The notes under the pieces were generated by a model. That model was not told where the DNA came from. It saw only the letters and a program-made list of their open reading frames with translations, and searched no databases. This document shows positions 3,775 through 22,602 of a stretch of 64,000 nucleotides of DNA, piece after piece. Made by a program: the position numbers and the translations under genes. Within the stretch, counting starts at the first letter, position 1. Each line of letters starts with the position of its first letter. This DNA comes from a virus (lineage: Duplodnaviria > Caudoviricetes): positions 913 to 64,912 of the IMG/VR virus record IMGVR_UViG_3300027804_000071; one strand, 5' to 3'.

Positions 3775-3819
3775 TTGACATGACTTGCAACTGGTCATAA
3801 TATGGAGGCTCAACTGCTA
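3775..3819 (+). promoter_or_regulatory. sigma70-type promoter with TCAACTGCTA at predicted +1
   Basis: TTGACA (3775-3780), 17 bp, TAATAT (3798-3803); motif at 3810-3819. Confidence 0.75.
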
Positions 3820-3834
3820 GAAAAGGGGAAATCA

Positions 3835-3939
3835 ATGCGAATTATTGTCGGTTTAGTTACCGCTATTTTGTTGCCAGTAGCGATTGTCGTTGTGGCAATG
3901 CGGTGTGCAAAAGCTTTTGTTGAAAGGGGGATTGAGTGA
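3835..3939 (+). CDS. 34-aa single-pass hydrophobic peptide
   Basis: RBS AAGGGG; MRIIVGLVTAILLPVAIVVVAMRCAKAFVERGIE; GTGA overlap with the next gene. Below the ORF-track cutoff. Confidence 0.7.
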   Translation: MRIIVGLVTAILLPVAIVVVAMRCAKAFVERGIE

Positions 3940-4835
3940 AATTAACCAATAAGTATGGCATCCCACAGACGTTTATGAATGTCTTGGAACGCCCTACGTA
4001 TAGCAAAGGTAAGGCTAATATCTCAGCTACTCAGCTGTTGAATAGCCCAAAGATCGTTGCTTTGACCAAGAAGTTTGATGAGGAGTTGGAACAGGACGTG
4101 GCTGACATGATTTGGTCACTGTTTGGTTCAGCAATGCACAACATTCTTGAGCATGGCAAAGATGGCAATCATGTGGTGGAACAGCGTATCCACGTAGAGC
4201 ATGACGGTTGGCACATCTCAGGTGCTATTGACCTACAGATTGTGAATCCTGATGGCACGATTGATATTCGTGACTACAAGACTACATCTGCATGGGCAAT
4301 GATGAACGAGAAGATTGAGTGGGAACAGCAACTCAACATCTACGCATGGCTTATTGAGCGTGCCAAGAAGCAAACCGTTAGTTCTGTGGGTATCGTTGGT
4401 TTGATCCGTGATTGGAATCGCCGTGAGGCGGCTACGAAAGAGGGCTATCCAGAAGCTCCAGTCAAAGAAATCCCAATCAAACTGTGGACGTTTGACGAGC
4501 GTGAACAGTTTATCTCTAAAAGGGTGGCATTGCATAGTGCTTGTGATTTCGCCATGGAAACAGATGGCGAGTTACCTGACTGCACTCCGACAGAGATGTG
4601 GGAAAAGCCAACGGTTTGGGCTGTCAAGAAGGAAGGCAATATCAAAGCCAAGGCATTGTATGAGACTGAAGCCTTAGCAGAAGAGGCTGTAAGAGTCTTT
4701 TCTGAGAAGGATCCGAAGTCAAATTTCATCATAGAAGTAAGGCCAGGGGAGCGCACTCGTTGTGCAAACTTCTGTTCAGTTGCCCCATATTGCCAACAAT
4801 ATCGGGACTATTTAAATCTCAAGGAGGAAGTATGA
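3936..4835 (+). CDS. PD-(D/E)XK exonuclease (Cas4-like phage recombination nuclease)
   Basis: ISATQL, FGSAMHNILE, ISGAIDL..IRDYKTT, QLNIYAWL motifs; terminal Cys cluster RCANFCSVAPYC. Confidence 0.85.
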   Translation: MKLTNKYGIPQTFMNVLERPTYSKGKANISATQLLNSPKIVALTKKFDEELEQDVADMIWSLFGSAMHNILEHGKDGNHVVEQRIHVEHDGWHISGAIDLQIVNPDGTIDIRDYKTTSAWAMMNEKIEWEQQLNIYAWLIERAKKQTVSSVGIVGLIRDWNRREAATKEGYPEAPVKEIPIKLWTFDEREQFISKRVALHSACDFAMETDGELPDCTPTEMWEKPTVWAVKKEGNIKAKALYETEALAEEAVRVFSEKDPKSNFIIEVRPGERTRCANFCSVAPYCQQYRDYLNLKEEV

Positions 4836-4972
4836 AAAAGGTTATTTTGTGTTTATTTGTTGCAATGATTTCAACAAGCTCATTTGCAGCTATTAAGTGT
4901 GTTCCTAGTGGTGGCGGTACTTGCTGTTGGGACACAGTTCGTGACGGTCCATTTAAGCCAATTGGTTGCTGA
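4832..4972 (+). CDS. 46-aa exported Cys-rich peptide
   Basis: RBS GGAGG, ATG at 4832; signal peptide MKKVILCLFVAMISTSSFA followed by a mature part with 4 Cys. Confidence 0.65.
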   Translation: MKKVILCLFVAMISTSSFAAIKCVPSGGGTCCWDTVRDGPFKPIGC

Positions 4973-4973
4973 T

Positions 4974-5192
4974 ATGAGTTGTAAATTTGTTATTTGGGAT
5001 ACTTCCACAGGCATTTATGACGGAGCATATGCTGACAAAGATGTGGCTTTGGAAAGATATTTTGCTATGTTGGAAAACGACCCAAAGCGTGGATGGGTAT
5101 TAGCAGAAATTATTTACCCACAGGAGTTTAGGTTATCAGATGATAAGTTCCACGCAAAAGTAAGAACAAATCAAATTAAGGATTTCAAATGA
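4974..5192 (+). CDS. Hypothetical protein
   Basis: ORF packed between neighbouring genes; start chosen at ATG 4974. Confidence 0.55.
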   Translation: MSCKFVIWDTSTGIYDGAYADKDVALERYFAMLENDPKRGWVLAEIIYPQEFRLSDDKFHAKVRTNQIKDFK

Positions 5193-5920
5193 GTGTATAT
5201 AAAAAACTACAGGATGCACGTATTCAGTTACAGAATACAAAGCTTTCTAAATCAGGGAAAAACAAGTTTGCTGGGTATGAATACTTTGAATTGGGGGACT
5301 TTTTGCCTTCTATTCAGAATATCTGCCAAAAGGTAGGCTTGTGCGGTGTCGTGTCATTCAATGCTGACATGGCTTATCTGACCATCTATGACACAGACGG
5401 TGGCGACAGTAACTTTGTTACCTTCACATCCCCTATGTCATCGGCCGCCCTCAAGGGTTGCCATGATGTGCAGAACCTAGGTGCAGTTCAGACTTACCTA
5501 CGCCGTTATCTATGGACTAATGCTTTTGAGATTGTTGAGCATGATGCCTTGGATGCCACCATGGGTAATGAGAAAACAACTGTAACAGCTGTTACACCCA
5601 AACCAGTAATTAAAACTGTTAATGGTGAGCCTGTTGATAGTAACTTAAAACCAATCAAGCCTATCACTGGTCAAAAAGGTGAGTTCCAGATTGTTGCACC
5701 AGGAATCCCTGATTCAGAGCTAGACATTCCTCAATGGCTAGAGAACATCAAGCAAGCCGCTAGGGTTCTATTGGCTGTTGCTGATAGCGAAGAAGACGTT
5801 ATGCACATCTTCAAGAAGAACAAAGTTTTATTTGATGCAGTAAAAACCACCGATGCCGTGTTCTTCAAGGAACTTATGGCGTTATTCACAGAAGCAAAAA
5901 CACAACTAACTAAGGAGTAA
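5189..5920 (+). CDS. erf: ERF-family single-strand annealing protein
   Basis: KSGKNKFAGYEYFELGDFLP and QNLGAVQTYLRRY motifs; adjacent to the exonuclease. Confidence 0.85.
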   Translation: MSVYKKLQDARIQLQNTKLSKSGKNKFAGYEYFELGDFLPSIQNICQKVGLCGVVSFNADMAYLTIYDTDGGDSNFVTFTSPMSSAALKGCHDVQNLGAVQTYLRRYLWTNAFEIVEHDALDATMGNEKTTVTAVTPKPVIKTVNGEPVDSNLKPIKPITGQKGEFQIVAPGIPDSELDIPQWLENIKQAARVLLAVADSEEDVMHIFKKNKVLFDAVKTTDAVFFKELMALFTEAKTQLTKE

Positions 5921-5922
5921 TT

Positions 5923-6099
5923 ATGTTTAATTGGGAAAAATTGGCTATGTATGAAATTACAAAAGCCGAAAGACATTTAGTGGATACAGATGACCAGATT
6001 CACTGTTCAGTATGTGGAGAACATATTGGTGATCATGGTGTTAAAGATGGTGTTTTATTGCACCCACTAGACATCGCAAACATTATTAATAAGGATTAA
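5923..6099 (+). CDS. Hypothetical 58-aa protein (CxxC)
   Basis: RBS AAGGAG; MFNWEKLAM...HCSVCGEH. Confidence 0.55.
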   Translation: MFNWEKLAMYEITKAERHLVDTDDQIHCSVCGEHIGDHGVKDGVLLHPLDIANIINKD

Positions 6100-6101
6100 T
6101 C

Positions 6102-6359
6102 ATGGCAACTTTCGAGCAAAAACCAAATAGCGGTGCAATGTTTGTAAACGAACAGAAGAAAACAGAAAACCACCCAGACTGGCGTGGTGATCTACACCTA
6201 GACAAGACTTTCATTATTCAGCAGATGGATAAGATGGATGGTCCTTTGGTCAAGATCTCTTTGTCAGCTTGGTCTAAACAGGCTAAGTCAGGCAAGGACT
6301 ACCTATCCCTATCGGCATCTGAGCCGTGGGTTAAAAAAGACAGCGACTTACCATACTAA
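6102..6359 (+). CDS. Conserved phage protein, possible ssDNA-binding protein
   Basis: NSGAMFVNEQK..NHPDWRG...AW...GKDYLSLS with DLPY C-terminal tail; lies in the ERF operon. Confidence 0.55.
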   Translation: MATFEQKPNSGAMFVNEQKKTENHPDWRGDLHLDKTFIIQQMDKMDGPLVKISLSAWSKQAKSGKDYLSLSASEPWVKKDSDLPY

Positions 6360-6363
6360 GGAG

Positions 6364-6606
6364 ATGAACATGGCTAGAACAGTAGGTGCAAAAGACAAGA
6401 CCCCACGTAAGAAGAACCCAGCGGTTTCTCTTGAGAAGCAACTAGAGCAGTGGGATGCCAAAGAACAAAAGGTGGACTGGCAGGATCTATGTCAGAAGCT
6501 ACAGAGCGCATTGGCCAAAGCCTATGTTGATTGTGACTTGCTAGAAGTTACAGTAGCAGAGCAGAAGGTCATCATTCGTTACTTAGAAGGTCGTACTGTT
6601 GTATGA
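6364..6606 (+). CDS. Hypothetical protein (basic N-terminus, coiled coil)
   Basis: RBS AAGGAG; MARTVGAKDKTPRKK. Confidence 0.6.
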   Translation: MNMARTVGAKDKTPRKKNPAVSLEKQLEQWDAKEQKVDWQDLCQKLQSALAKAYVDCDLLEVTVAEQKVIIRYLEGRTVV

Positions 6607-7022
6607 ACAAGGTAAGTTTTGAGGGCGTAAAGGTCGCTATCAAGCAAGATAAGACTGGCTATGTGCTAACGCTATCTATCCATCCTGATGACATTCCTGA
6701 GGTACTACTCAGGGATTTCGTTGGGGCGCGGTATGGTGTGGCCATGGTCAGGATTGACGGCAACGAGCAACCAATGAACCGAGAAGCTGAGTTTGAAGGC
6801 GATAAGCTAATCCGTATAGCTGGCATGTTTAGCAAGGATAAGCAGTTCTGGAAGTATCTATATGACGATGCCCAGATATTTGAAGAGAACGAGAAGGAAG
6901 CCACTGATTGGTTAAGAACCTACCTGTGTATTCAGTCCCGTGCCGAGCTTAAAACGAATGTTCAAGCACAGCAACTTATGAAACAACTAGTTAAGGAATT
7001 TAACGAATGGAAAAGAAACTAG
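6603..7022 (+). CDS. Hypothetical protein
   Basis: 139-aa ORF with ATGA coupling. Confidence 0.6.
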   Translation: MNKVSFEGVKVAIKQDKTGYVLTLSIHPDDIPEVLLRDFVGARYGVAMVRIDGNEQPMNREAEFEGDKLIRIAGMFSKDKQFWKYLYDDAQIFEENEKEATDWLRTYLCIQSRAELKTNVQAQQLMKQLVKEFNEWKRN

Positions 7023-7285
7023 TACCGTACTCGGTGTACCTACCCGAAGAGCATGTAAAGAAGTTACGTGATCTAGCCAAAGACCGTAAGGCCTCTGAGC
7101 TAATCCGTGATGCAGTTATCAACATGCTAAGTGGTGGCGATACATTTAAAAGTGGTTACAACAAAGGTCTCAAAGATGCTGCGAAGGTAGTCTATGACTC
7201 ACCAGAAGCTCAGATGATTGCTGTTAAAAAGCGTGACTTGGGTGACATTTTGTCTGAACAGATTGAAGCATTGGAGATGAAATGA
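7007..7285 (+). CDS. Ribbon-helix-helix (CopG/Arc-like) DNA-binding protein
   Basis: VPYSVYLPEEHVKKLRDLAKDRKASELIRDAVINML fits the strand-helix-helix pattern. Confidence 0.55.
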   Translation: MEKKLVPYSVYLPEEHVKKLRDLAKDRKASELIRDAVINMLSGGDTFKSGYNKGLKDAAKVVYDSPEAQMIAVKKRDLGDILSEQIEALEMK

Positions 7286-7503
7286 GTGATGATCCAACAA
7301 GAGATATAGCGATTGAGGTATTCCAGATGTTGGCTGCCAAGGCTGATACTGATACTGCTGTAATACTATCTGCTGTGAGTATTGTCCTGGCTACTATTGC
7401 TGTAGAGGCTGGTATGGAAGAGGAAAAGGCAGTCTACGCTTTCCGTAAATCCTACGGCAACGCACAGAGAAGACTGAAGCGATTGATGAAAGAGGTGCAT
7501 TAA
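7282..7503 (+). CDS. Hypothetical protein
   Basis: Coupled ORF in the operon. Confidence 0.55.
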   Translation: MSDDPTRDIAIEVFQMLAAKADTDTAVILSAVSIVLATIAVEAGMEEEKAVYAFRKSYGNAQRRLKRLMKEVH

Positions 7504-7736
7504 TGAACGATGATGACTTGAGAGATTGCTTTGCTATGTTTGCTATGAACGGCTATGTATCTAATATGGGTTTTAACCCCCAAGCGCATGGCGGGATATG
7601 TAAAGATGGCGAAACTAATGCGGAGGCTGTTGCAAGAAGTTGCTACGAAATGGCAGATGCCATGATTGAAGCACGTAAACCTAAAGAAGAAGCTGGGTTA
7701 CCAGCTATCAGACGGAGAGTAAAGAAGGGTGAGTGA
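7503..7736 (+). CDS. Hypothetical protein
   Basis: TAATG coupling; DLRDCFAMFAM...ARSCYEMADAMIEARK is a common phage pattern. Confidence 0.6.
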   Translation: MNDDDLRDCFAMFAMNGYVSNMGFNPQAHGGICKDGETNAEAVARSCYEMADAMIEARKPKEEAGLPAIRRRVKKGE

Positions 7737-7878
7737 TCAAAACAAGTGGTGTACGTCATGCCGAATGATGAAGAACCCCATGGGTGGAGAGTGGATTGTT
7801 TCAAACAAGGGGCTTGTTAAGCGTTGGTCTTGTGCTTCTTGCCTTCAAAGAGCAAAGGAGCGAAAGGGGAAACTATGA
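7729..7878 (+). CDS. 49-aa zinc-finger-like protein
   Basis: GTG start; CTSC...CASC; ATGA overlap with the next gene. Confidence 0.5.
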   Translation: MSDQNKWCTSCRMMKNPMGGEWIVSNKGLVKRWSCASCLQRAKERKGKL

Positions 7879-8222
7879 AAGCTAGATATGTAGTAGGTTC
7901 AATATTGGTTGCTTGGATGGCTACCTATGTTTATGCCGTAAAAGCTGAGACAGTTGCAACTCAGCCTAACCAGGCTGGCGGGAAGATTGTTCTAACTGAT
8001 CAAATTTGCAAGTACGATGGTCAGGTATTCGATAAATTAAACCGTGCCTATAACTATGGCAGTGCAGGCTATACAAGCGAAGGCTGCTGGGGTGTTGAGG
8101 ATGAAACAGTGATTGTTTACTGGATTGATACAGACCAGAAGATGCGTTATCCAGCTACTGCTTTCACTATGAGTCCTAAATATAGTAAGAAAAAGGGAAA
8201 TAGCGATGGATACAGATATTAA
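7875..8222 (+). CDS. Exported hypothetical protein
   Basis: RBS AAGGGG; signal peptide MKARYVVGSILVAWMATYVYA. Confidence 0.6.
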   Translation: MKARYVVGSILVAWMATYVYAVKAETVATQPNQAGGKIVLTDQICKYDGQVFDKLNRAYNYGSAGYTSEGCWGVEDETVIVYWIDTDQKMRYPATAFTMSPKYSKKKGNSDGYRY

Positions 8223-8397
8223 AGAAGACAAGGCTTGGGTAACCAAGTTCCGTAACTTTGCAATCGTTTTGCTTGTTGGCTTTGCTTTGGGAACCGTAGT
8301 CTCAAACATTACTTATACCTACCACTTACAACAGGATTGCGACACTATGAAGCAGTTCCGTATTGGTAAGTTGGCCTACACATGCATGGTGAAGTGA
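8206..8397 (+). CDS. Small membrane protein
   Basis: One hydrophobic segment, FAIVLLVGFALGTVV. Confidence 0.55.
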   Translation: MDTDIKEDKAWVTKFRNFAIVLLVGFALGTVVSNITYTYHLQQDCDTMKQFRIGKLAYTCMVK

Positions 8398-8705
8398 TGA
8401 AGCCACATAAACACGCAGAATTAATCAAAGCATGGGCTGATGGCGCTGAGATTGAGTCTAGGAATTTATGCACAGCAACATTGTCCTGGGAGGACTGGAA
8501 ACTAAATGAGACCCCAAATTGGTCAGTCAGTGATTTCGTTGAGTTCCGCATCAAGCCTACGCCAATAAAGCTTGATATTGTTGTATTAAGACATCTTAGA
8601 TTTTGGAGAGACAATTTATTAGCTGACCCAAATGAAGAGCCAAATATTAAATTTGTTTTTGATGGTGAAACTAGGAAAGTTAAATCAGCAGAGGTATTGA
8701 AATGA
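8397..8705 (+). CDS. Hypothetical protein
   Basis: MKPHKHAELIKAWADGAEIE...FRIKP, a common phage pattern. Confidence 0.6.
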   Translation: MKPHKHAELIKAWADGAEIESRNLCTATLSWEDWKLNETPNWSVSDFVEFRIKPTPIKLDIVVLRHLRFWRDNLLADPNEEPNIKFVFDGETRKVKSAEVLK

Positions 8706-8751
8706 GCTGGGCCATCTTAATCTGCCTCATCGTGATTGTGTATCGCCTTGA

Positions 8752-8976
8752 GTGCATATTGAAGGAGTTGCGGAAATGACATCAAAAGATAGGTTTCCAA
8801 ATCACGAAACAATATGCGGTCAATGTGGCACAACAATTTATAAACCATTTAAAGGGTTAAGTGATAAAGAAATAACTGAAGTGTTTGATGAGTGTTACCC
8901 AAATAACGGTGATGGTGATGTTGTTACATTGATTGATTTTGCTAGAGCAATACTAAAGAAAGCGAGTGAGAAATGA
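8752..8976 (+). CDS. Hypothetical protein (start uncertain)
   Basis: GLSDKEI...FARAILKKASEK pattern. Confidence 0.55.
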   Translation: MHIEGVAEMTSKDRFPNHETICGQCGTTIYKPFKGLSDKEITEVFDECYPNNGDGDVVTLIDFARAILKKASEK

Positions 8977-9254
8977 GAAAAGTGAGCATACGAACAGTTG
9001 AAGGTGATATTGGATTGGCACGTAGTGTTGCTAATGGAACAACCAAGTTTCCTTTTCTTAACTACTGTGCAGACCAGATGGAAAGGATGCTTGAAGAGAT
9101 TAAAGATGCAAGAAAGAAAAAAGAGTGGCAGTACCTGACAGACGATGAGATTAAAGAAATCGTTGGTAGCTACGGCGACGGTGTTGGCGGTTACACCCGT
9201 GAACTGTTTGAAAAAATACAGGCCAAGATAAAGGAAAAGAACTTTGATTCCTAA
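8973..9254 (+). CDS. Hypothetical protein
   Basis: LTDDEI...IQAKIKEKN pattern, similar to the preceding ORF. Confidence 0.55.
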   Translation: MRKVSIRTVEGDIGLARSVANGTTKFPFLNYCADQMERMLEEIKDARKKKEWQYLTDDEIKEIVGSYGDGVGGYTRELFEKIQAKIKEKNFDS

Positions 9255-9885
9255 AATAATTCACATTATCTGGATTGGCGATCAATCCAAAAAACCAACC
9301 AAGTGCATTGATACTTGGATTAAAAAGAACCCTGATTACGAGGTAAGAGTCTGGGGTAACAATCAAGTTCAGGCGACCAACTGGAAGAACTACCGACAAC
9401 TTAACGACATGATTATCAAACAGGATTGGGCTGGGGCTAGTGACGTGATGCGTTATGAAATCCTGTATGAGCATGGTGGCGTTTATGTGGATGCAGATAC
9501 TTATTGCGTTAAGCCATTAGAAGATTGGCTATTAAATTGCCAAGCGTTTGCCTCTTGGGAACAGGAGCTGGTGCGAAACAATCTGATTGCCAATACTGTG
9601 ATGGGTAGCGTGCCAGGCTCTGAGGCCATGAAGTTGTGCATAGATGAAGTGGCCACAAAGGACTGCACAGAACAGAAACTTGCGTGGATGATCACTGGTC
9701 CGATGCTTGTGACTGATGTATTTTTCAAGAAGCAAGCAAATCTGACGGTGTATCCTTCCCACTTCTTTATGCCAAAGCATCACTCTGGTTATGAAAGTAA
9801 GGTAACGGGTCATCACTTTGCCAGCCACCTATGGGGTTCTGACATTGGTTATGACAATATGGACAAAATTATGGAGAAGAATTAA
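9244..9885 (+). CDS. GT32-like glycosyltransferase (DXD sugar-binding)
   Basis: IPKIIHIIWIG, SDVMRYEILYEHGGVYVDAD and TGP motifs; TTG start. Confidence 0.85.
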   Translation: MIPKIIHIIWIGDQSKKPTKCIDTWIKKNPDYEVRVWGNNQVQATNWKNYRQLNDMIIKQDWAGASDVMRYEILYEHGGVYVDADTYCVKPLEDWLLNCQAFASWEQELVRNNLIANTVMGSVPGSEAMKLCIDEVATKDCTEQKLAWMITGPMLVTDVFFKKQANLTVYPSHFFMPKHHSGYESKVTGHHFASHLWGSDIGYDNMDKIMEKN

Positions 9886-11630: not shown

Positions 11631-11910
11631 AAATCAAAAACTATTGGAGGCTCTTCGTGAGTCTCCATGCCAACATTGTGGGAGACAAGATGGAACAATT
11701 GTTGCAGCGCACAGTAACCAGCTCAGAGATGGCAAAGGCCGTGGCATCAAGGCACATGACTACAGGACGGCAGCTCTATGCTACGGGTGTCACATGGAGT
11801 TGGATCAGGGCAAGAACCTATCAAAAGCTGAGAGGGAAGAGCTATGGGAAAACGCCCATCGTAAGACGGTAGGCTGGCTCTTTGAAGCAGAAAAACTCGT
11901 AATTAAGTAA
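11623..11910 (+). CDS. DUF1364/DUF968-like zinc-binding (His-Me finger) protein
   Basis: PCQHCG...VAAHSNQ..GKGRGIKAHD...LCYGCH. Confidence 0.7.
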   Translation: MYRNQKLLEALRESPCQHCGRQDGTIVAAHSNQLRDGKGRGIKAHDYRTAALCYGCHMELDQGKNLSKAEREELWENAHRKTVGWLFEAEKLVIK

Positions 11911-12012
11911 AATACCCAAGAGGGCTGTGGAACTCGGCTCGGCGAGTATAAATATCCTGTAACCTAAATCCATTAATATACGACCTCAGCCCTCACTCCA
12001 AATTACTACAGA

Positions 12013-12042
12013 TTGACACAGATCGTAATATTCTGCTATATT
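12013..12042 (+). promoter_or_regulatory. sigma70 promoter of the sRNA
   Basis: TTGACA (12013-12018), 18 bp, extended -10 TGcTATATT (12034-12042). Confidence 0.7.
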
Positions 12043-12047
12043 TAGTG

Positions 12048-12178
12048 TGTCAGACCTCCAAGATACTGACAGCCGTCACTCGCTTTTGATGTAGCAGTTG
12101 ATTGTGAATAAATGACGGCAAGCCCCTCGGTGATCCCCTTCACCCTAAACCCCCAGCTAATCCCTGGGGGTTTTTCTT
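12048..12178 (+). ncRNA. Predicted trans-acting small RNA (three hairpins plus terminator)
   Basis: Stems TGTCAG/CTGACA, GCCGTCA/TGACGGC, GGTGA/TCACC and a terminator; no ORF; own promoter; loops complementary to other phage leaders. Confidence 0.7.
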
Positions 12179-12179
12179 T
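12149..12179 (+). terminator. Intrinsic terminator ending the sRNA
   Basis: ACCCCCAG-ctaatcc-CTGGGGGT followed by TTTTCTTT. Confidence 0.85.
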
Positions 12180-12254
12180 GCCCATTTTCTCCCGATAGCC
12201 AGGCTACAGGGAATTACCTCAAATCAGCTATTTCAGGTAACTCTAAAAAAGTTG

Positions 12255-12299
12255 TTGCAAATTATTTTTATTTCATTTAATCTACAGTTTCAACTGCTA
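12255..12299 (+). promoter_or_regulatory. sigma70 promoter with TCAACTGCTA at predicted +1
   Basis: TTGCAA (12255-12260), 17 bp, TAATCT (12278-12283); motif at 12290-12299. Confidence 0.7.
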
Positions 12300-12694
12300 A
12301 GGATCAAAAGCGAGAACTGAAACAATTTCTCGTAGACAATATGAATATGAACGTGCCACACGTTGGCATTGTCACCTTTGTCTCTTTTGATTCTTAGCAT
12401 ATGACGGACTCCACCCGTTAGCAATGAACCTACATGGGTTGCGTGGAAGAGAACATAGGCTGATTTCATCACCCGATTTAGCCTCGTAGCCTTAAATGGG
12501 GACTACACAAGACGGAGAGGCCAGAGGTGAGACCAACTCTCCATCGATTGAACATTAACTTAGGTAGGACTAGCAGTAACCGTGTTGTAGTGTATGGATT
12601 CGTGGAGTGTTAGTTGTGGGTCAGAGTGATTAAGTACAACAGATCGTTGGCTTATCACCCTTGGGGGAACTATGAGAAAAAGAAAGAGACATAA

Positions 12695-12877
12695 ATGCAG
12701 ATAAAAATACCAAAATTCCAAGCCGTGCGTTACATGGTGCATGACTGGGGTGGCCCAATTCGTGGCTTTGAGACAAGAGCTGAGGCTGAAGACTTTGTTA
12801 ATGGTGACAAATCTTATTGGGTTGAATTCATTCCAAAGAGAGTAGCGACCATTGACGTAGAAGAAGCACCGTTTTAA
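12695..12877 (+). CDS. Hypothetical protein
   Basis: 60-aa ORF containing FETRAEAEDF. Confidence 0.55.
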   Translation: MQIKIPKFQAVRYMVHDWGGPIRGFETRAEAEDFVNGDKSYWVEFIPKRVATIDVEEAPF

Positions 12878-12896
12878 ACTGATTGTTCAACTGCTA
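12852..12896 (+). promoter_or_regulatory. sigma70 promoter of the replication operon with TCAACTGCTA at predicted +1
   Basis: TTGACG (12852-12857), 17 bp, TAAACT (12875-12880); motif at 12887-12896. Confidence 0.7.
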
Positions 12897-12940
12897 GGGG
12901 AAACCGATGGAAAAACACTTATCCGTTTACGGAGGCATTT

Positions 12941-13249
12941 ATGTCTGGTAAACAAAATAAAGAAATCACTGATGCAATCCTTAATGAAATAGCTAACAAG
13001 GGTTGCGTAAGCACTCAAGAGATCGCAGAACTTCTAAAGACAACACCAGCCGTATCTGCTGGGCGTTTGACTTACTTGCGTAAACAGGGTCGTATCGTAG
13101 GCAAGAAGGGTAGATGGGCGTTTCGCATGGAACATCTAAACATCAAGCCAAAAGAACTTCTTGTCAATCAAACATTCAGAGATTTATCAGAAATCTTTGA
13201 CAACATTATTCGTATGGGGTTACCAAATGAAAAAACTCAACATTCTTAA
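12941..13249 (+). CDS. Winged-helix DNA-binding protein
   Basis: RBS GGAGG; VSTQEIAELLKTTPAVSAGRLTYLRKQGRI HTH pattern. Confidence 0.55.
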   Translation: MSGKQNKEITDAILNEIANKGCVSTQEIAELLKTTPAVSAGRLTYLRKQGRIVGKKGRWAFRMEHLNIKPKELLVNQTFRDLSEIFDNIIRMGLPNEKTQHS

Positions 13250-16751: not shown

Positions 16752-17001
16752 GACGAATGAATTTGGCCTCAATCTGCCTAGCTCTTTCACGACCCATGCC
16801 ATGCGGTTTACCACTATCTGCTAGTGTTGCACCTTTGGCACGGGTTTTTAACATTTTCCAATAAGCATCACGGCAATCCTTCGGACTGCGGTAAAACATT
16901 TGATCAAATTCTGATTTTGTTGGGAAATCTACCAAACGGTAGGGAGTGTCCCCTACCACCGTGTAAACAGGGACTCTTCCGTTGCATTTACTTAGATTCA
17001 T
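16717..17001 (-). CDS. Stand-alone sigma70 region-4-like HTH protein
   Basis: TLADSGKPHGMGRERARQIEAKFIRLM resembles sigma70 region 4.2 (TLEEVG...TRERIRQIEAKALRKL). Confidence 0.7.
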   Translation of the reverse strand: MNLSKCNGRVPVYTVVGDTPYRLVDFPTKSEFDQMFYRSPKDCRDAYWKMLKTRAKGATLADSGKPHGMGRERARQIEAKFIRLMSLAYAEKSV

Positions 17002-17002
17002 C

Positions 17003-17176
17003 TCAGTCCCTTGGGTCAATTTCACAAACATCAGTCGTTTCCCAATCGGTAGCCACCTGAATATCATCTTCATCAAGGTAGTCTATTGCCATATCGCAAG
17101 CCTCATCTGCATCACTTGCATCCACGGTCACCACGACCTTAGCCGTGGTGGTCATTGTTATTTCATATCGTCTCAT
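17003..17176 (-). CDS. Small acidic protein (DpnD/PcfM-like pattern)
   Basis: MRRYEITMTTTAKVVVTVDASDADEACDMA; translated manually. Confidence 0.55.
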   Translation of the reverse strand: MRRYEITMTTTAKVVVTVDASDADEACDMAIDYLDEDDIQVATDWETTDVCEIDPRD

Positions 17177-17436
17177 AGTAATCTTAATTCCTCTCTGGTC
17201 ATTGATTGCATCATGTTTTGTTCTTCTTCAAACATATCGTTCATGCCGTTGTCGCCTAGCGTGTGGATATTTATGTGAAAGACCGCATCAGGGTCATACG
17301 GCTCATCATCAAGACAAAATACATTGATGTCGTGATGTTCAAACCCATGCCACCAATCGCATTGGTCAAGGATTTCATCCTTATACTTTTTGATCGTGGC
17401 AAGGACTAATTTCTTATCAACTAAGTAGCTTTTCAT
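17173..17436 (-). CDS. Hypothetical early protein
   Basis: Start MKSYLV after a GAGGG RBS; coupled overlaps. Confidence 0.55.
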   Translation of the reverse strand: MKSYLVDKKLVLATIKKYKDEILDQCDWWHGFEHHDINVFCLDDEPYDPDAVFHINIHTLGDNGMNDMFEEEQNMMQSMTREELRLL

Positions 17437-17600
17437 GGGTTCACCCTCTGGAGTAGTTCCTTCAAGTAACCCAAGCTGATGCCGTGTTGGTCTGCATACC
17501 AAGATAAACATTCCTCTTGGTTCACAAAGCCACCATCTTTGAAATAGTTAGCCTTGACCACGGTCAGCATCTCTCTTACTTCTTGTAGGTCATTCATCAT
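17433..17600 (-). CDS. Hypothetical early protein
   Basis: RBS GAGGAGG; 55 aa; translated manually. Confidence 0.5.
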   Translation of the reverse strand: MMNDLQEVREMLTVVKANYFKDGGFVNQEECLSWYADQHGISLGYLKELLQRVNP

Positions 17601-17781
17601 TGACCTCCTCAATCAAACCCCTGTTAATCATCTCTTCCTGTAGGTCGTTGTCATACCAATTCTCATAGCCAATAAAGCCCTTACGCATAATAAATGCGAA
17701 GTAATCATCCTTATCGTCACGGTCATACCAACTGTTCAAATCATCATCAATCAATAGGTCAATCATCTCGTTGCGGTTCAT
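17590..17781 (-). CDS. Hypothetical acidic early protein
   Basis: Coupled ORF with RBS AAGGAG. Confidence 0.6.
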   Translation of the reverse strand: MNRNEMIDLLIDDDLNSWYDRDDKDDYFAFIMRKGFIGYENWYDNDLQEEMINRGLIEEVNDE

Positions 17782-18041
17782 GCCGTCTCCTTTTTAACCA
17801 TATCAATCCAAAGCTCAATCGTTTCCCAATTGATGCCAATACTAGAATCTGAATACTTTTTCATGTATTTGAGAACATTTAGAGCTTGCTCGTGAGTCAG
17901 TTCATCACCGTTACTCGCACCATAGATGTCTGATATATGCCACCAATCAGCATACCAATCAGGGCTTGTAAGCATCAAAATATCTTCAGCTTGCGGAATA
18001 GCCTGACCCTCTGGCACATCTATCTCAATCATCACCTTCAT
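17778..18041 (-). CDS. Hypothetical early protein
   Basis: WHISDI...LT.EQA..VL...D..IGINW.TI pattern, common in phages. Confidence 0.6.
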   Translation of the reverse strand: MKVMIEIDVPEGQAIPQAEDILMLTSPDWYADWWHISDIYGASNGDELTHEQALNVLKYMKKYSDSSIGINWETIELWIDMVKKETA

Positions 18042-18238
18042 ACATCCTCCTTCTGTCTATCCCATGCCATACCAGATACCTCATAAAGTTTATTTTGAAA
18101 ATCACGCAAGGCATCTATCTGGTCAGCCTCAAAAAACATATTGGTCATTTGGTGGGTCGTCTCCACCCAACGAGCAATAAACTGTTCCTTAGTTAATTTC
18201 ACAGGTTTAAAAAACCCATCAAAGGTCTTTGTTTCCAT
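18038..18238 (-). CDS. Hypothetical early protein
   Basis: RBS TTGGAGG; start METK. Confidence 0.6.
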   Translation of the reverse strand: METKTFDGFFKPVKLTKEQFIARWVETTHQMTNMFFEADQIDALRDFQNKLYEVSGMAWDRQKEDV

Positions 18239-18252
18239 AGTTCCTCCAAGAA

Positions 18253-18307
18253 CGGCCAACATTAGCCCACAAACCCACTCCGCAGAATGGGCTTGTAGAT
18301 AATGCTA
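18253..18307 (-). ncRNA. Structured intergenic RNA element, copy A
   Basis: UAGCAUU/AAUGUUG outer stem, internal loop, 9-bp inner stem; homologous to 20283-20336. Confidence 0.65.
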
Positions 18308-18457
18308 CTTACTGAAACTTCTCATCCAAGCCAAGAGAATGGTCTTCGCCTCCTTACGGTCAAGACCGAATTCAGCCTCTAGGTAAGGTGATGCAAGCAA
18401 CATATTGGTCTCGCCAGAGTCCCGTAGGTCATTGAGGTAGTCAAAGTATTGGCTCAT
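18305..18457 (-). CDS. Hypothetical 50-aa protein
   Basis: MSQYFDYLNDLRDSGETNMLLASPYL...WMRSFSK; RBS GGAGG. Confidence 0.65.
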   Translation of the reverse strand: MSQYFDYLNDLRDSGETNMLLASPYLEAEFGLDRKEAKTILLAWMRSFSK

Positions 18458-18458
18458 C

Positions 18459-19046
18459 TCAATCCTCCCACAACTCGTAAGCATTAAGAATATCCATCTC
18501 GTTCAAGATGTCTGATGGGATACCTTTGAGGCTTTCTCTGGTGACCCGACCCTCGTCATCAGTCTTAATGTCATAGGTGTCGTCCTGACCATCCATCCAT
18601 AACCCACAGAAGGCACATCCGCCCTCGTGGTAATAGGCACGGACTGTAAAGCCTAGCTCTTCCAATTTGGCATAGGCATCTGTCGGAGGTGACCAAGCAG
18701 AATCAAAGTAAACAAACATATCGTTATCGCCACCTTGAGCCTTGTTATCCCTGTCGTCACTATGACCAATGTCCCACTTAGTCCCCCAATTCTGTATTCG
18801 CCAATCCCACCATGCATCCTCACGGATGGTCGGTTCATTAGCCAATGCTTTAGCCTTTTCCTCTTCGGTCTTGGCAAAATCTGCCATGATGTTCGGGAAT
18901 GTCTGAGGCACAGGTGTAACTGTGTAATCAGGTTCAGGCACAAAGGTCGCCAAGAAATTACCAGAATCCCAAGCCTCTTTGGCTTTTTTGATCATCTCTG
19001 GGTCTTCGTGAGTTAAATATAGGTTGTTATCGCACCAATTAGGCAT
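18459..19046 (-). CDS. DUF1281/YubB (Api92-like) ferredoxin-like domain protein
   Basis: MPNWCDN...WWDWRIQNWGTKWD...FDSAWSPP...YHEGG. Confidence 0.75.
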   Translation of the reverse strand: MPNWCDNNLYLTHEDPEMIKKAKEAWDSGNFLATFVPEPDYTVTPVPQTFPNIMADFAKTEEEKAKALANEPTIREDAWWDWRIQNWGTKWDIGHSDDRDNKAQGGDNDMFVYFDSAWSPPTDAYAKLEELGFTVRAYYHEGGCAFCGLWMDGQDDTYDIKTDDEGRVTRESLKGIPSDILNEMDILNAYELWED

Positions 19047-19194
19047 TTTCATTCTCCTTGAGTTTATAAAAGTTAAATACAGATACATCTTGAAACTTCA
19101 CACAATCATTTAGGTATTGGATTAGTGCATCCACAGCCTCTTCCTCGTTCTCTACTTCTATTTCATCTTGAAAAGTAACCTCAAATTTAGGCAT
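19039..19194 (-). CDS. 51-aa acidic protein (array member)
   Basis: MPKFEVTFQDEIEVENEEEAVDAL; ATGCCTAA overlaps at both ends. Confidence 0.6.
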   Translation of the reverse strand: MPKFEVTFQDEIEVENEEEAVDALIQYLNDCVKFQDVSVFNFYKLKENENA

Positions 19195-19342
19195 TTTCAA
19201 TCTCCATAGTTTCAGCTACAAAAGGGTCGTTCAAATCATCATTACTAAACATTCCCCATGCGAGGTCTTCTGCATCTTTTTCATCAAAAGCCTCTACTTC
19301 ATAGACAACGCATCTCTCAATTACGACCTGATATTTAGGCAT
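19187..19342 (-). CDS. 51-aa acidic protein (DpnD/PcfM-like pattern)
   Basis: MPKYQVVIERCVVYEVEAFDEKDAEDLAWGMF. Confidence 0.6.
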   Translation of the reverse strand: MPKYQVVIERCVVYEVEAFDEKDAEDLAWGMFSNDDLNDPFVAETMEIENA

Positions 19343-19511
19343 CTTTTTCCTCCTCAATTAAGTCAGCCTCTTCGCAAAGAAATTCAGGATGTTCGGGTGT
19401 TATCTCGCCATCCTTATACATACCCCATGCGACCATTTCAGCATCTCTGGGGTCTTCCGCCTCTACTTCTACATAGATTGCAGTAGTCATTAGCACACTC
19501 CATTTAGGCAT
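19335..19511 (-). CDS. 58-aa acidic protein (paralog of 19187-19342)
   Basis: MPKWSVLMTTAIYVEVEAEDPRDAEMVAWGMY. Confidence 0.6.
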   Translation of the reverse strand: MPKWSVLMTTAIYVEVEAEDPRDAEMVAWGMYKDGEITPEHPEFLCEEADLIEEEKDA

Positions 19512-19704
19512 TTTCATTTATCCCTTCTGTGATTTGTTTAACCCCACACACCGCCAAAATGATTTCACGGCAACTTGAATCAACTCCAAAATCTTTACAA
19601 ATGTCTGCCCAATCATGAGGAATAACCTCAGGGTTCAGTCTTACCCATCCACCCTGTGGCAATACCTCATAACCGTTTTCTACCAATTCTTCTTCGGTAA
19701 TCAT
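19504..19704 (-). CDS. Hypothetical early protein
   Basis: RBS AAGGGGG; ends ENA* overlapping the next ATG. Confidence 0.6.
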   Translation of the reverse strand: MITEEELVENGYEVLPQGGWVRLNPEVIPHDWADICKDFGVDSSCREIILAVCGVKQITEGINENA

Positions 19705-19845
19705 AATTTCCCCCTTGCCTGTAGCTCTTCTTCAATGTCATAAACTAGCATGATGTCTTTAACACCCAAGCCCCCAAAATGTAGCTCTTTCAATAGTGTT
19801 CTTAACTGCCTGACGGTCATGTTTTTAACATTCATCAGTCACCTC

Positions 19846-20070
19846 CTACCAATCACAGAGGACGGTCTCGCCCTCTTCGTTGCGAACCTCAGACCCCATA
19901 GATTCAGACCAAGACCATGCCATATCAATAATTCGGTCATTGGGTTCGCTAGACTCCACTAGATCAATAGAACTGCCATCATTCATGGCAATCTCATTAG
20001 CCTCCTCTGGCGACTCTGCAAGCACTTCATACTCAACAATCGCATAAACATAAACCGTGTATCTATTCAT
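19846..20070 (-). CDS. Acidic protein (DpnD/PcfM-like pattern)
   Basis: MNRYTVYVYAIVEYEVLAESPEEANEIA. Confidence 0.55.
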   Translation of the reverse strand: MNRYTVYVYAIVEYEVLAESPEEANEIAMNDGSSIDLVESSEPNDRIIDMAWSWSESMGSEVRNEEGETVLCDW

Positions 20071-20266
20071 AATTCACCTCCGTAATCGTGAAATCATCCC
20101 CAATAACTGCCCCAACTTGCAACGGCTCACCATCCATGTAATGGAAAATGCTTTCGTCCTCAAGGTCTTCGACCTCATCCCATGACCCAAGGGCAATTTT
20201 TACATCAAAGATATTTTCGGGGTCTTCTGACCAATGACCCTCGCACCATACCGTTTTGTATTTCAT
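20063..20266 (-). CDS. Hypothetical early protein
   Basis: RBS TTGGAGGT. Confidence 0.6.
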   Translation of the reverse strand: MKYKTVWCEGHWSEDPENIFDVKIALGSWDEVEDLEDESIFHYMDGEPLQVGAVIGDDFTITEVNYE

Positions 20267-20282
20267 ATAACCTCCAAGTTAT

Positions 20283-20336
20283 CGGCTAACATTAGCCCAA
20301 TAGGTCACTCAGCGAATGACCTATTAGAAAATGCTA
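20283..20336 (-). ncRNA. Structured intergenic RNA element, copy B
   Basis: Same flanks and loop as copy A; 9-bp inner stem differs in sequence but remains paired. Confidence 0.65.
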
Positions 20337-20600
20337 CCCCCTTAATAATGGTAAAACTTGGTCTCTGTCGTGACTCGTGAACAATGAGCCTCCCTCGTTG
20401 CCTTCATCATCACATGATGGAAAAATCCAAATGCCACTATCTAAAAGCATGGTCACAGGGCGACCAGACCATCCCATATTTTCTGACTCTTCATCTGTTA
20501 AATAGCGAACCTTGACTATTTTGCGACCAAGTAACAGGTCAGAGGCGACCTTATCCCAATGCTTAGTTAATTCTTTGTCGTTCATTTCGTGCAGTTTCAT
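20334..20600 (-). CDS. Hypothetical early protein
   Basis: LLGRKIVKVRYLT.EE...W...IFPSCDDEGNEGG, a common phage family. Confidence 0.65.
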   Translation of the reverse strand: MKLHEMNDKELTKHWDKVASDLLLGRKIVKVRYLTDEESENMGWSGRPVTMLLDSGIWIFPSCDDEGNEGGSLFTSHDRDQVLPLLRG

Positions 20601-21101
20601 TTATGCCACCTTTTTAAAATCGTTAAAAAATACAGACCCATCAGCTAAATAATCGTATTCGTTGAGGGTTAGAGTCTCGTCAATGTTGTTATCGCTATAA
20701 AAATCCTCTACATCACGGCTAACATAGTTAAGGAATGACTCTATAGCTTGCTGATACGCATACATGGAATCTCCTGTAGCCTTAAAACTGTCGTGAAACT
20801 CTTCCCAAAGTGAGCAGTCAGCACAGTAGCCTGTTGGCATATGGTCACGGCTAAAATCTTTTAGCTTTAACCCACGGAAATTGTGCTTGCCTAGGTCGGT
20901 TTTAATAAAAGCATGGCGGGTATCGCCAACAGACCAATTAAGCATTGAACCGCCAAAATGACCAATAAAAGCCTTGGCTGATTCCATATTTTCATCAAAC
21001 CAAGGATATTCCCAAGTGGAACGAAAGACCTCCCTCGCCTTTTCCTTGGCTTCCTCTTCTAATTCATCAAAACTAAAAACCTGAATTTCTACCTTTTCCA
21101 T
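20601..21101 (-). CDS. Hypothetical early protein
   Basis: RBS TTGGAGGT; VFSFDELEEEAKEKARE...NEYDYLADG. Confidence 0.65.
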   Translation of the reverse strand: MEKVEIQVFSFDELEEEAKEKAREVFRSTWEYPWFDENMESAKAFIGHFGGSMLNWSVGDTRHAFIKTDLGKHNFRGLKLKDFSRDHMPTGYCADCSLWEEFHDSFKATGDSMYAYQQAIESFLNYVSRDVEDFYSDNNIDETLTLNEYDYLADGSVFFNDFKKVA

Positions 21102-21188
21102 ATAACCTCCAAAATTACGCACCCACCCTAAAGATTAACCACCACCCTGACCCGTTGCGTATAGGTCTGGGGGTCGGTTTTTTGATCG

Positions 21189-21290
21189 CTAGCTGTTAGA
21201 GATAAACGACCAAGCAAACAAAAAAGCAAGCCCACCCATCACGGCAAGACTAGCGACCCACTCGAGCAACATAACAACGAACCGCCTCAC
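21189..21290 (-). CDS. 33-aa hydrophobic peptide
   Basis: GTG start in a GTGA overlap; MRRFVVMLLEWVASLAVMGGLAFLFAWSFISNS. Confidence 0.5.
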   Translation of the reverse strand: MRRFVVMLLEWVASLAVMGGLAFLFAWSFISNS

Positions 21291-21475
21291 GATTGCACCT
21301 GAGAGACAGAGACACCATAGACGGCTAGAAACTTAATAGCCTCTTTGTCCATCTTCACGGCTTTAGACATCAGCCCCGACAATTCGGCAGATGTTCTGGA
21401 CGGGTTGCCCTGTTCCAGATGGTGACGAGCCACGGCACGAGGCACGGGGCGAGAATTAACATAAAATTGAATCAT
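21287..21475 (-). CDS. Hypothetical early protein
   Basis: Coupled ORF. Confidence 0.55.
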   Translation of the reverse strand: MIQFYVNSRPVPRAVARHHLEQGNPSRTSAELSGLMSKAVKMDKEAIKFLAVYGVSVSQVQS

Positions 21476-21648
21476 CTTTCAAACTCCACCAAAGTATTCA
21501 AAAGGTAGTCTCTGACTGAGTAGCCTGTGACCTCTGGGTGAGTCTCTGCGAGTGCTTTGTATTCCATAAAAAACTCAGCCGAGTCCTTATCGGAAAACTT
21601 AGCAATTGCCTCGCTTGTTTCGGTAGTGTGGCGATATACATAAAACAT
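21472..21648 (-). CDS. Hypothetical early protein
   Basis: RBS TGGAGGT just 3' of the hammerhead cleavage site. Confidence 0.6.
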   Translation of the reverse strand: MFYVYRHTTETSEAIAKFSDKDSAEFFMEYKALAETHPEVTGYSVRDYLLNTLVEFER

Positions 21649-21665
21649 AAAAACCTCCATTTAAT

Positions 21666-21718
21666 GACTAAGACCGTCCTGAGACGGTTTCGGCTAATAA
21701 AGCCCTCATCAGTTAGCC
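21666..21718 (-). ncRNA. Type I hammerhead ribozyme
   Basis: Minus strand: GGCUAA-CUGAUGA-G-GGCU(uuauu)AGCC-GAAA-CCGUC(ucag)GACGG-UC^-UUAGUC; full core, three stems, GUC triplet. Confidence 0.85.
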
Positions 21719-21904
21719 TTGAATCGCTTTTTGCATCTCCTTGGCGAGTTCTATCCACGAGTCAGCATTGATTAAACCCATTGAAGGATATTGCTCAGGG
21801 GTGGACTCTGCGACCTGAGCCGTGTAACGGTTTACCGCCTCCAAAATCATCAGAGGGGCTAAAGGGTGAGAGTCTAGAAGTGCTTGGACTGTTTTAGGGT
21901 TCAT
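21713..21904 (-). CDS. Hypothetical early protein
   Basis: Its stop codon lies in hammerhead stem I. Confidence 0.6.
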   Translation of the reverse strand: MNPKTVQALLDSHPLAPLMILEAVNRYTAQVAESTPEQYPSMGLINADSWIELAKEMQKAIQG

Positions 21905-22332
21905 ACTGTCGCCTCTTTGCTGATGTAGTAGGCGAGAGTCTGCCCCTTTTTGTTGTATTCACCCTGTAAAGAGAGACCCAAAGCCCTAGCGATTCTTTTC
22001 ATTGAATCAAGACCGCAAGCACCGTCAAGACAGACCGACCCATCTGGGCGAATGGTCAAGCCATAGAATGAAGGGTTTATATCCTCGGCAATCTGTAGCC
22101 ACGAAGTAGAGCCATAAGGCACTTTTGGCAAATCCTTAACGAGGGCTTTCAATTCGTCCTGATATTCACACTCTAAGAAATCCCCGAAGACCTTCCCAGT
22201 CATGTCATAGCCACCACCTGAGCAACGATACCGCTTGCCAGAGTTGCGAGAATCAAGACGGCAGATGTTGTAGCCGTAAGTGTCACGACCACGAGAGACA
22301 GACCAAGACAAAGCTAAACGATTGATAAACAT
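21901..22332 (-). CDS. Hypothetical early protein
   Basis: RBS TGGAGGT; YRCSGGGYDMTG...LDGACG, a common phage family. Confidence 0.65.
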   Translation of the reverse strand: MFINRLALSWSVSRGRDTYGYNICRLDSRNSGKRYRCSGGGYDMTGKVFGDFLECEYQDELKALVKDLPKVPYGSTSWLQIAEDINPSFYGLTIRPDGSVCLDGACGLDSMKRIARALGLSLQGEYNKKGQTLAYYISKEATV

Positions 22333-22348
22333 TTTTCAGACCTCCAGA

Positions 22349-22543
22349 TTAAAAAGTAAAACCAACAAAAACAGAACGAGAACCACGGACAAATTTTTCG
22401 TGATTGATGTCGTCAAACTTGTAAATAGAATAAGAGCGAGACTCACGGTCATAGTCACCACGAACCCAAACAGGCGAAGACTCAGAATCTTTCAGCTTGA
22501 TAAATTCCCCCTTCGGTATTGCTTTAATTGTCATTTGTTCCAT
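22349..22543 (-). CDS. First gene of the leftward early operon (hypothetical)
   Basis: RBS AGGAG abuts the TCAACTGCTA motif; GEFIKL...VWVRGDYDR..YS. Confidence 0.65.
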   Translation of the reverse strand: MEQMTIKAIPKGEFIKLKDSESSPVWVRGDYDRESRSYSIYKFDDINHEKFVRGSRSVFVGFTF

Positions 22544-22602
22544 TGTGAAAACTCCTAGCAGTTGATTGATGCGAATAGTCACCTATTGACTAATCTCGCC
22601 TG

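Follow-up and report, generated by a model that had tools for sequence, protein, structure and literature searches.

To our knowledge, most of the regulatory RNAs described in phages are either cis-antisense or directed at a single transcript. Among RNAs of other origin, the small RNAs (sRNAs) with C-rich loops, of the RsaE/RoxS and S. aureus RNAIII type, are chromosomal regulators of Firmicutes that occlude Shine-Dalgarno (SD) sequences, and the ColE1 RNA I/RNA II pair and the trans-encoded type I antitoxin sRNAs (IstR-1/tisB, OrzO/zorO) exemplify a short RNA that binds a long, highly folded neighbour at its 5′ end. The CI RNA of the phage-plasmid P4 is a small untranslated RNA that pairs with the seqA and seqC boxes in its own replication/early leader and shuts the transcripts down, and IsrK of the Gifsy-1 prophage is structurally related to it (PMC4825925). 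SviR, from the Vibrio cholerae satellite PLE, is reported to be a trans-acting, multi-target sRNA that lowers translation of phage and satellite mRNAs and is kept in all family members (bioRxiv 10.1101/2022.04.08.487710). Here we describe a 64,000-nucleotide stretch of Caudoviricetes DNA (hereafter the window, W), which makes up nearly all of a 64.9-kb IMG/VR viral contig (IMGVR_UViG_3300027804_000071, positions 913 to 64,912). In it an identical 10-mer, TCAACTGCTA, which we call the tag, heads four early and middle transcription units and has its exact complement in a predicted sRNA. From comparison of this DNA with its relatives, we think it rather likely that the tag is a 5′ leader element beside the SD that is paired by the sRNA, with a block of translation as the probable outcome.

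The tag occurs exactly five times in the window (Table 1), against 0.24 copies expected from shuffles, and none of 100 shuffles attained five. All five copies fall within the non-coding DNA, about 6–8% of the window. Allowing one mismatch adds three sites, all intragenic, to give eight against 5.6 expected, which is no enrichment. The exact count yields nothing beyond the four sense copies and the inverted one that the initial annotation had found by eye, and the late, structural-gene promoters are indeed devoid of the tag, as it had said. In front of copies 1, 2 and 3 stands a −10 box, with its −35 box 17 bp upstream and its final base 7 nt before the first base of the tag, a geometry already described there and borne out by the sequence and a promoter scan (throughout, “+1” is a position predicted from promoter geometry). 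Copy 4 does adjoin the GGAG of the first leftward early gene, as had been reported, but it is not at +1: it has no −10 box at the same offset, and the best promoter would put it some 31 nt into the leader (about +31). The sense copies each stand at the head of one of four early or middle units, namely a recombination operon (copy 1), a structured RNA that we call nc2 (copy 2), an operon for a winged helix-turn-helix (wHTH) protein, a ParB-like protein, a helicase and a primase (copy 3) and the leftward early operon (copy 4), which supports the earlier suggestion that all of these units share an initial transcribed sequence. Copies in mRNAs are always in the sense orientation, and the sole antisense copy per genome, in W and its relatives alike, is the one in the sRNA. 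The 10-mer itself has neither dyad symmetry nor a −10-like element.

No other site in the 20-kb early region matches a sigma70 promoter as well as the one predicted for the sRNA, whose TTGACA is invariant in six homologues. With its own predicted promoter and terminator, the sRNA forms a discrete non-coding unit, for which we predict a fold of three stem-loops and a terminator: SL1 carries the C-rich loop ACCUCCAAG, SL2, a long-range stem, a large loop that contains the seed UAGCAGUUGA, and SL3 the loop UCCCCU. At least 20 related loci have a homologue in the corresponding position, just upstream of the promoter of a conserved RNA free of open reading frames (ORFs). The same four-element fold is predicted for ten of them; promoter and terminator are kept, and compensatory changes are seen at 5 of the 10 terminator pairs. 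Each of the ten folds places the seed in the loop of SL2 (mean unpaired probability 0.51 in the window and 0.33–0.99 in homologues), and the C-rich hairpin loops, at 12049–12070 and 12128–12143 in the window, are found in every clade. Two ribosome-binding sites of the leftward operon, at 20270(−) and 18243(−), read CTTGGAGGT and are complementary to the ACCUCCAAG loop; the UCCCCU loop is complementary to the GGGG ribosome-binding sites beside copies 1 and 3.

The window was compared with related loci (labelled L plus a number). The two closest genomes, L006 and L007, have helicases 82% identical to that of the window. L007 keeps all five tag positions, four of them exactly, with the site-C copy reading CCAACTGCTA; L006 keeps four, three of them exactly, the sRNA copy having one change that retains pairing as G·U, and the site-C copy was not found in that genome. 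Copy 1 is invariant at the homologous sites in L006 (at 1658) and in the L007 genome (locus L100), and the −35 and −10 boxes of the promoter before it are kept in both. The promoter before copy 2 falls under the threshold of the promoter scan, and its whole −35 to −10 block is likewise kept in L006 and L007. The 6-nt discriminators and the downstream leaders differ throughout between the three genomes, which argues that the 10-mer itself is under purifying selection. In the wider family, a core (C)TGCTAGGAG comprising leader and SD recurs just downstream of −10 boxes, and its complement CUCCUAGCAG is found in the sRNA homologues; the transcripts predicted from promoters homologous to that of copy 3 in L007, L011, L013, L016 and L056 begin with (T/C)C(A/C)ACTGCTAGG. 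Lists of k-mers recurring between loci were too noisy to inform this comparison.

This correspondence persists as the tag itself changes. In 16 non-identical genomes, the central region of the sRNA is complementary to the first 12–25 nt of the neighbouring transcript, whose start varies by clade (TCAACTGCTA.., GCTAGGATTTA, ACTGCTAAGTGG.., TGAGAGA.., AGGTTAGATATG, CTGAGGAATAGA or CCGCTATGAATTAAAC). The cognate sRNA–leader pair ranked first in 14 of the 16, and the mean alignment score was 28.1 for cognate versus 15.5 for non-cognate pairs (permutation p<5e-5), so that seed and target co-vary. Several clades carry their own version of the tag on more than one leader: L038 and L048 have two promoters ending ...TATAAA/TGAGAGA, with an identical TATAAA discriminator; L011 has three leaders with GCTAGGAT, and L056 has five with CTGCTAGGAG. 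Among the three mechanisms proposed in the initial annotation, an sRNA target fits this joint change of sRNA seed and leader tags best.

In some relatives the tag is found with no promoter nearby, at sites where an RNA end would be made by cleavage. Hammerhead-like cores, called by eye from a CUGAUGA, a GAAA, a cleavage triplet and three stems, lie between cistrons of the leftward operon in W at 21712(−), L006 at 17232(−), L007 at 17608(−) and L056 at 9100(−) and 8355(−), and also in L012 at 14490, 13900 and 13065(−) and L019 at 15412(−); further recurrent cores are at 17942(−) in L006 and 18351(−) in L007. The predicted cut is 10–20 nt upstream of the ribosome-binding site, and the upstream stop codon is in stem I. 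The Rfam model RAGATH-1-hammerhead scored 18 bits on the W core (E 0.56), below its gathering score of 56.3, and no Rfam hammerhead match was obtained in L007. The tags of L006, L007 and L056 come just after the site of predicted cleavage, in the order stem I-CUGAUGA-stem II-GAAAC-stem III-GUC/UUAG-UCAACUGCUAGGAG, such that the cut would leave the tag 4 nt from the new 5′ end, with its first two bases in stem I. In L007 two cistrons of the leftward operon flank the tag, well inside that operon, and the tags in L007 and L056 have no promoter nearby. That the tag occurs mid-operon, 4 nt after a predicted ribozyme cut, argues that it is a mark of RNA 5′ ends, whether these arise by initiation or by predicted self-cleavage, and not a promoter element. 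The 8-mer TTAGTCAA, which resembles the ribozyme product end and lies at the predicted 5′ end of the leftward leader in the window, is not enriched there (5 copies vs 2.9 expected).

On the mRNA leaders of the window, the sRNA can form 10, 10 and 13 contiguous pairs, the 13 being on the leftward leader, where CAA at 22568–22566, upstream of copy 4, adds three complementary bases; on the nc2 leader it can form 10 + 12. In L007 contiguous pairing spans 13, 12 and 14 nt with three mRNA leaders vs 11 nt with the neighbouring leader, and in L056 it spans 11–13 nt on five leaders, with the whole GGAG covered. From these pairings, the flanks of the sRNA seed appear to be tuned to the mRNA leaders and not solely to nc2. 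The pairing sites on these multiple targets are all proximal to the ribosome-binding site, lying within −25 to −11 of the start codons or over the GGAG; beyond copy 1, for instance, an SD-like AAGGGG follows at 3824–3829. Pairing of an sRNA in the −25 to −11 zone falls inside the footprint of the 30S subunit and blocks translation initiation. A direct contribution of the tag to ribosome recruitment, like that of the T7 “epsilon” enhancer or an extended pairing with 16S rRNA, was rejected as impossible, since the tag is 5′ of the SD and only 2–3 rRNA bases are left to pair with it.

We therefore picture the tag, located at or near the 5′ ends of early and middle transcripts immediately upstream of the SD, as an RNA-level address. 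The sRNA, made from the strongest host-type promoter of the region, would offer an exact complement of the tag in its SL2 loop, flanked by the C-rich, anti-SD-like loops of hairpins 1 and 3. By pairing with the tag within the 30S footprint, it would keep ribosomes from loading on the cistron that opens each unit, and polarity or decay would then turn the whole unit down while the sRNA accumulates. The sequences and their comparison show the copies, their geometry and conservation and the joint change of seed and tag; we infer that the two RNAs pair in vivo, that the effect is repression rather than activation, and the timing.

The strongest predicted partner is the nc2 leader, whose duplex with the sRNA (−32.7 kcal/mol, z = −5.9 vs shuffles) is the top non-self match in the window. 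(The second-best duplex in the window is with an 18-nt complement, including G·U, to sRNA positions 12076–12094 at 25609–25640 in the large terminase gene, and is probably due to chance.) The core of nc2 was found by nhmmer in 25 related loci; 23 of its 54 predicted pairs show compensatory changes, long single-stranded blocks in it are invariant, and no Rfam family matches it. The 5′ hairpin of nc2 (12310–12333) has a conserved loop, ACUGAAACAAU, and within the clade of the window the extended pairing of the sRNA tracks the 5′ arm of this hairpin, the stem changing while the loop stays constant. Inside nc2 is a strand similar to the sRNA seed, with which the tagged 5′ end can pair in cis: the nc2 5′ end, reverse-complemented, aligns to the nc2 interior with a local score of 34 in W and 16–28 in 11 other genomes, scores that come without a shuffled control. 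The sRNA would thus compete with cis structures, both this stem, between 12295–12310 and 12384–12399, and the 5′ hairpin, and its binding would refold nc2. In L007 (7802–7926) and L056 (986–1100), the Rfam Betaproteobacteria-1 RNA (RF02932; 97 and 89 bits) replaces nc2 behind the same tagged leader, a link between these phages and an orphan motif that also hints that the host is a betaproteobacterium. An invertible promoter between the repeats 12078–12101 and 12290–12314 was considered as another account of this region and rejected: the orientation is the same in all 22 loci, no invertase was found, and the repeats are bulged.

Several points weigh against repression of all four units by the sRNA. 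The transcript starts, the sRNA and the interaction are all predictions, and since the sRNA and its targets all have host-type promoters, the logic of the timing is not evident. By duplex energy only the nc2 leader stands out, the three operon leaders being marginal (z = −1.3 to −1.9); the window-wide duplex scan returns many equally stable chance sites and leaves the leaders at 3810 and 12887 outside its top 18, although such a scan is uninformative for seeds of 10 nt. In L047, L042 and L019 the tag was found only on the neighbouring leader, so that a multi-operon regulon is not family-wide. The similarity between the reverse complement of the W sRNA and the nc2 region extends 17 bp upstream of the predicted +1; it is less clear in L011, L013 and L044 (6–17 bp before +1 with W included) and absent in the closest relatives, L006 and L007. 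Pairing in trans does not explain similarity upstream of +1. Finally, transition mismatches between seed and leader include 18 that are G·U-compatible vs 9 of the A·C type, alongside 49 transversions, and these numbers do not discriminate RNA pairing from a DNA inverted repeat.

Some of these points would equally suit an alternative in which the 5′-terminal tag is recognised not by the sRNA but by another reader (the ribosome, a nuclease, or an RNA-binding protein of phage or host), and the sRNA is dedicated to the neighbouring structured RNA, matching the other leaders only because nc2 also starts with the tag. The outstanding pairing of the nc2 leader and the clades with a tag on the neighbouring leader only are as expected for such an arrangement, as is the placement of the tag at RNA 5′ ends, ribozyme-made ones included, which suggests dependence on the 5′ end. 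We nevertheless give it only a modest chance of being right. The flanks of the sRNA extend its pairing with mRNA leaders past what the neighbour would need, in L007, at site C of L013 and L011 and on the leftward leader of W; the duplex in L056 covers the SD of five leaders; and no candidate for the reader protein was identified.

Alternatively, the tag could be a DNA operator at +1 for a phage protein that represses the early and middle promoters, as the initial annotation had also considered, with the ribbon-helix-helix (RHH) protein at 7007, the wHTH protein at 12941 or the LexA-type protein at 24531 as candidates and the copy in the sRNA gene as one more operator. The offset is indeed fixed at the three copies that overlap predicted starts, genes for small DNA-binding proteins lie nearby (all with weak Pfam matches except LexA_DNA_bind, E 2e-8), and a concerted change of sites between clades would also be expected if an operator co-evolved with its protein. 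As a general explanation this is unlikely, given a motif that lacks dyad symmetry, that is strictly sense in mRNAs and antisense solely in the sRNA loop, and that in L007 and L056 is found mid-operon behind ribozyme-like elements with no promoter. Moreover, the complementary stretch ranges from 7 to 25 nt, with bulges, and across the family the conserved GCTAGG core begins at a variable distance of 6 to 12 nt from the −10 box.

The predicted +1 to +10 position at three promoters with identical spacing also brings to mind an initial-transcribed-sequence element that acts on RNA polymerase, whether as a sigma-dependent pause, for qut-like loading of an antiterminator, or in promoter escape. The pause and qut-like versions, raised in the initial annotation, lack support as general accounts, and we regard the whole class as quite improbable: position 2 of TCAACT, where a −10-like pause element has its critical A, is a C, none of the genes scanned was recognised as Q-like, copy 4 is displaced downstream in its leader and the L007 and L056 tags follow hammerhead-like ribozymes in mid-operon, away from promoters, and a co-varying antisense copy in the sRNA would be left unexplained. 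That the copies are functionless leftovers of duplicated promoter-leader cassettes, or a chance repeat, is very unlikely in view of the comparative data, since, even though several other 10-mers also occur at least five times in the window (mostly as coding repeats), the tag is far above its expected count and exclusively non-coding, is invariant over three genomes whose flanking sequences have diverged, and co-varies with the sRNA across clades.

Table 1. Predicted features of the window (coordinates are window positions)
Feature	Position	Strand	Details
Promoter P1 of recombination operon	3775..3803	+	TTGACA(3775)-17-TAATAT(3803), 6 nt to tag; promoter scan 10/12
Tag copy 1	3810..3819	+	Predicted +1; −25..−16 from ATG 3835 of 34-codon hydrophobic ORF
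Rightward recombination operon	Exonuclease 3936, Erf 5189, on to 11910	+	PHROGs
ORF-free stretch	11911–12694		
sRNA promoter	12013..12042	+	TTGACA-18-TATATT, TG upstream; scan 11/12
sRNA, ~130 nt, ORF-free	12049..12178	+	Promoter and terminator scans; intrinsic terminator 12147–12173, then Us
sRNA seed	12092..12101	+	Exact complement of tag (minus-strand motif copy 5); complementarity spans 12078–12104
Promoter P2 of nc2	12255..12283	+	TTGCAA(12255)-17-TAATCT(12283), 6 nt to tag; read from sequence
Tag copy 2 and second 12-nt stretch	12290..12314	+	Predicted +1; strongest predicted sRNA partner (10 + 12 nt)
nc2, ORF-free structured RNA, ~400 nt	12290..12690	+	Core ~300 nt; just upstream of replication genes
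Seed-like internal nc2 strand	12378..12404	+	Can pair in cis with tagged 5′ end
Promoter P3 of wHTH/ParB-like/helicase/primase operon	12852..12880	+	TTGACG(12852)-17-TAAACT(12880), 6 nt to tag; scan 9/12; kept in L007
Tag copy 3	12887..12896	+	Predicted +1; then GGGG directly, ATG 12907 of 14-codon mini-ORF
Rightward replication operon	wHTH 12941 (102 aa), ParB-N-like 13161, helicase 14289, primase 15924	+	PHROGs/Pfam
Leftward operon, small genes	22543 down to ~16750	−	
Hammerhead-like type-I core	21667..21717	−	Inside leftward operon; CUGAUGA...GAAAC...GUC/UUAGUC by eye
Tag copy 4 leader	22541..22568	−	Tag 22565–22556, then GGAG 22555–22552, ATG 22543–22541 (8 nt on) of first leftward gene
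Leftward early operon promoter	22603..22632	−	TTGACA-18-GAAAAT; scan 10/12
Late genes	From 22869		TerS, HNH, LexA-DBD protein, TerL 24752, structural genes, giant protein off contig end

Gene functions were assigned from PHROGs and Pfam (Table 1). The 34-codon hydrophobic ORF after copy 1 (3835–3939) is also present in the L007 genome and absent from L006, where the tag leads directly into the exonuclease gene; a type I toxin-antitoxin system was rejected on this ground. After copy 3, the 14-codon mini-ORF (12907–12951) overlaps the start of the wHTH gene. The motif also has the ...CACTATAGGGAG shape of a promoter for a T7-like single-subunit RNA polymerase, an idea we discarded, as no gene for such a polymerase was found and bona fide −35/−10 pairs precede the motif. 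No integrase, immunity repressor or partition ATPase was recognised among the proteins scanned, most late ORFs being outside the scans, and only the ParB-N-like protein was seen. A very large ORF (58236–64000) leaves the end of the contig and another (3–3305) enters at the start of the window, 912 bases into the contig; if the genome is circularly permuted, the two may be one giant virion protein, and the 1085-aa ORF 48–3305, which would be part of it, matches only PHROGs of unknown function. Megablast revealed no close phage relative in GenBank, where the helicase is less than 60% identical to that of any deposited phage, and in IMG/VR the helicase has 80 relatives. A 62%-identical helicase lies deep within a 296-kb bacterial contig (L086; MERT01000028.1, a Burkholderiales metagenome-assembled genome), and distant relatives may therefore be prophages.

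Taken further, and tentatively, regulation by the tag and the sRNA could define a freshwater phage family, probably of Betaproteobacteria, with a private 5′-terminal RNA address code. The tag would be placed at +1 of host-type promoters or exposed by the cut of an embedded hammerhead; one sRNA with C-rich loops would read it and so control the recombination, replication and host-takeover operons together with a large structured RNA; and tag and seed would drift together as an orthogonal key and lock. Binding of the sRNA may also compete with stem I of the ribozymes. All the early and middle units of one phage, then, appear to be under a single trans-acting sRNA that recognises the same 5′ tag on each, and the natural co-variation over many uncultured relatives amounts to a ready-made set of compensatory “mutants.” If this is correct, phages that depend on the host polymerase throughout would have a simple timer or shut-off made of RNA alone, and synthetic regulation would gain a set of mutually orthogonal tag/seed pairs. 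Embedded self-cleaving ribozymes would also be linked to sRNA control via tagged 5′ ends, and nc2 and the Rfam motif Betaproteobacteria-1, both orphans among structured RNAs, would acquire a partner.

Set beside the known systems, the locus shares with P4 CI RNA and IsrK the targeting of the phage's own leaders through short complementary boxes, and nc2, with an internal copy of the regulator sequence that can pair in cis with its tagged 5′ end, recalls the seqA/B/C layout. However, P4 CI RNA is processed from the transcript that it controls and acts by premature termination in the maintenance of lysogeny, whereas the W sRNA has its own predicted promoter and terminator upstream of its target, and would pair with four separate units at their extreme 5′ ends, beside the SD. 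Neither a match to the P4 CI/IsrK/P1 c4 family nor processing from a controlled transcript with flanking target boxes was found; the IsrK, C4 and related Rfam models gave no match in the window at the gathering threshold, or in 11900–12950 and L006, L007 and L056 at an E-value threshold. As in RsaE/RoxS and RNAIII, several loops carry CCCC or UCCC complementary to G-rich ribosome-binding sites, with predicted binding at or beside the SD, but here specificity would come from an additional private tag/seed pair that changes between phage clades. SviR is likewise an sRNA of a mobile element with several targets; it is reported to act on transcripts of PLE and of phage ICP1, whereas the phage in W appears to regulate its own operons via an identical 5′-terminal tag. 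The competition between a 5′-to-internal stem and sRNA pairing is reminiscent of ColE1 and the type I antitoxins, from which the W pair differs in that it is not cis-antisense, that additional operon leaders are tagged, and that its cargo, nc2 or in relatives the Betaproteobacteria-1 RNA, is known neither as a primer nor as a toxin mRNA. Like lambda qut and the sigma-dependent pauses, the tag is conserved and lies within the initial bases transcribed; it lacks a −10-like pause element, no Q gene was recognised among the genes scanned, and in relatives the tag is found away from promoters. What sets the locus apart from P4 CI and IsrK, the C-rich-loop sRNAs and SviR is the combination of an independent sRNA gene, one identical tag at the extreme 5′ ends of four units, ends that in relatives are predicted to be made by ribozymes, and a tag/seed code specific to each clade.

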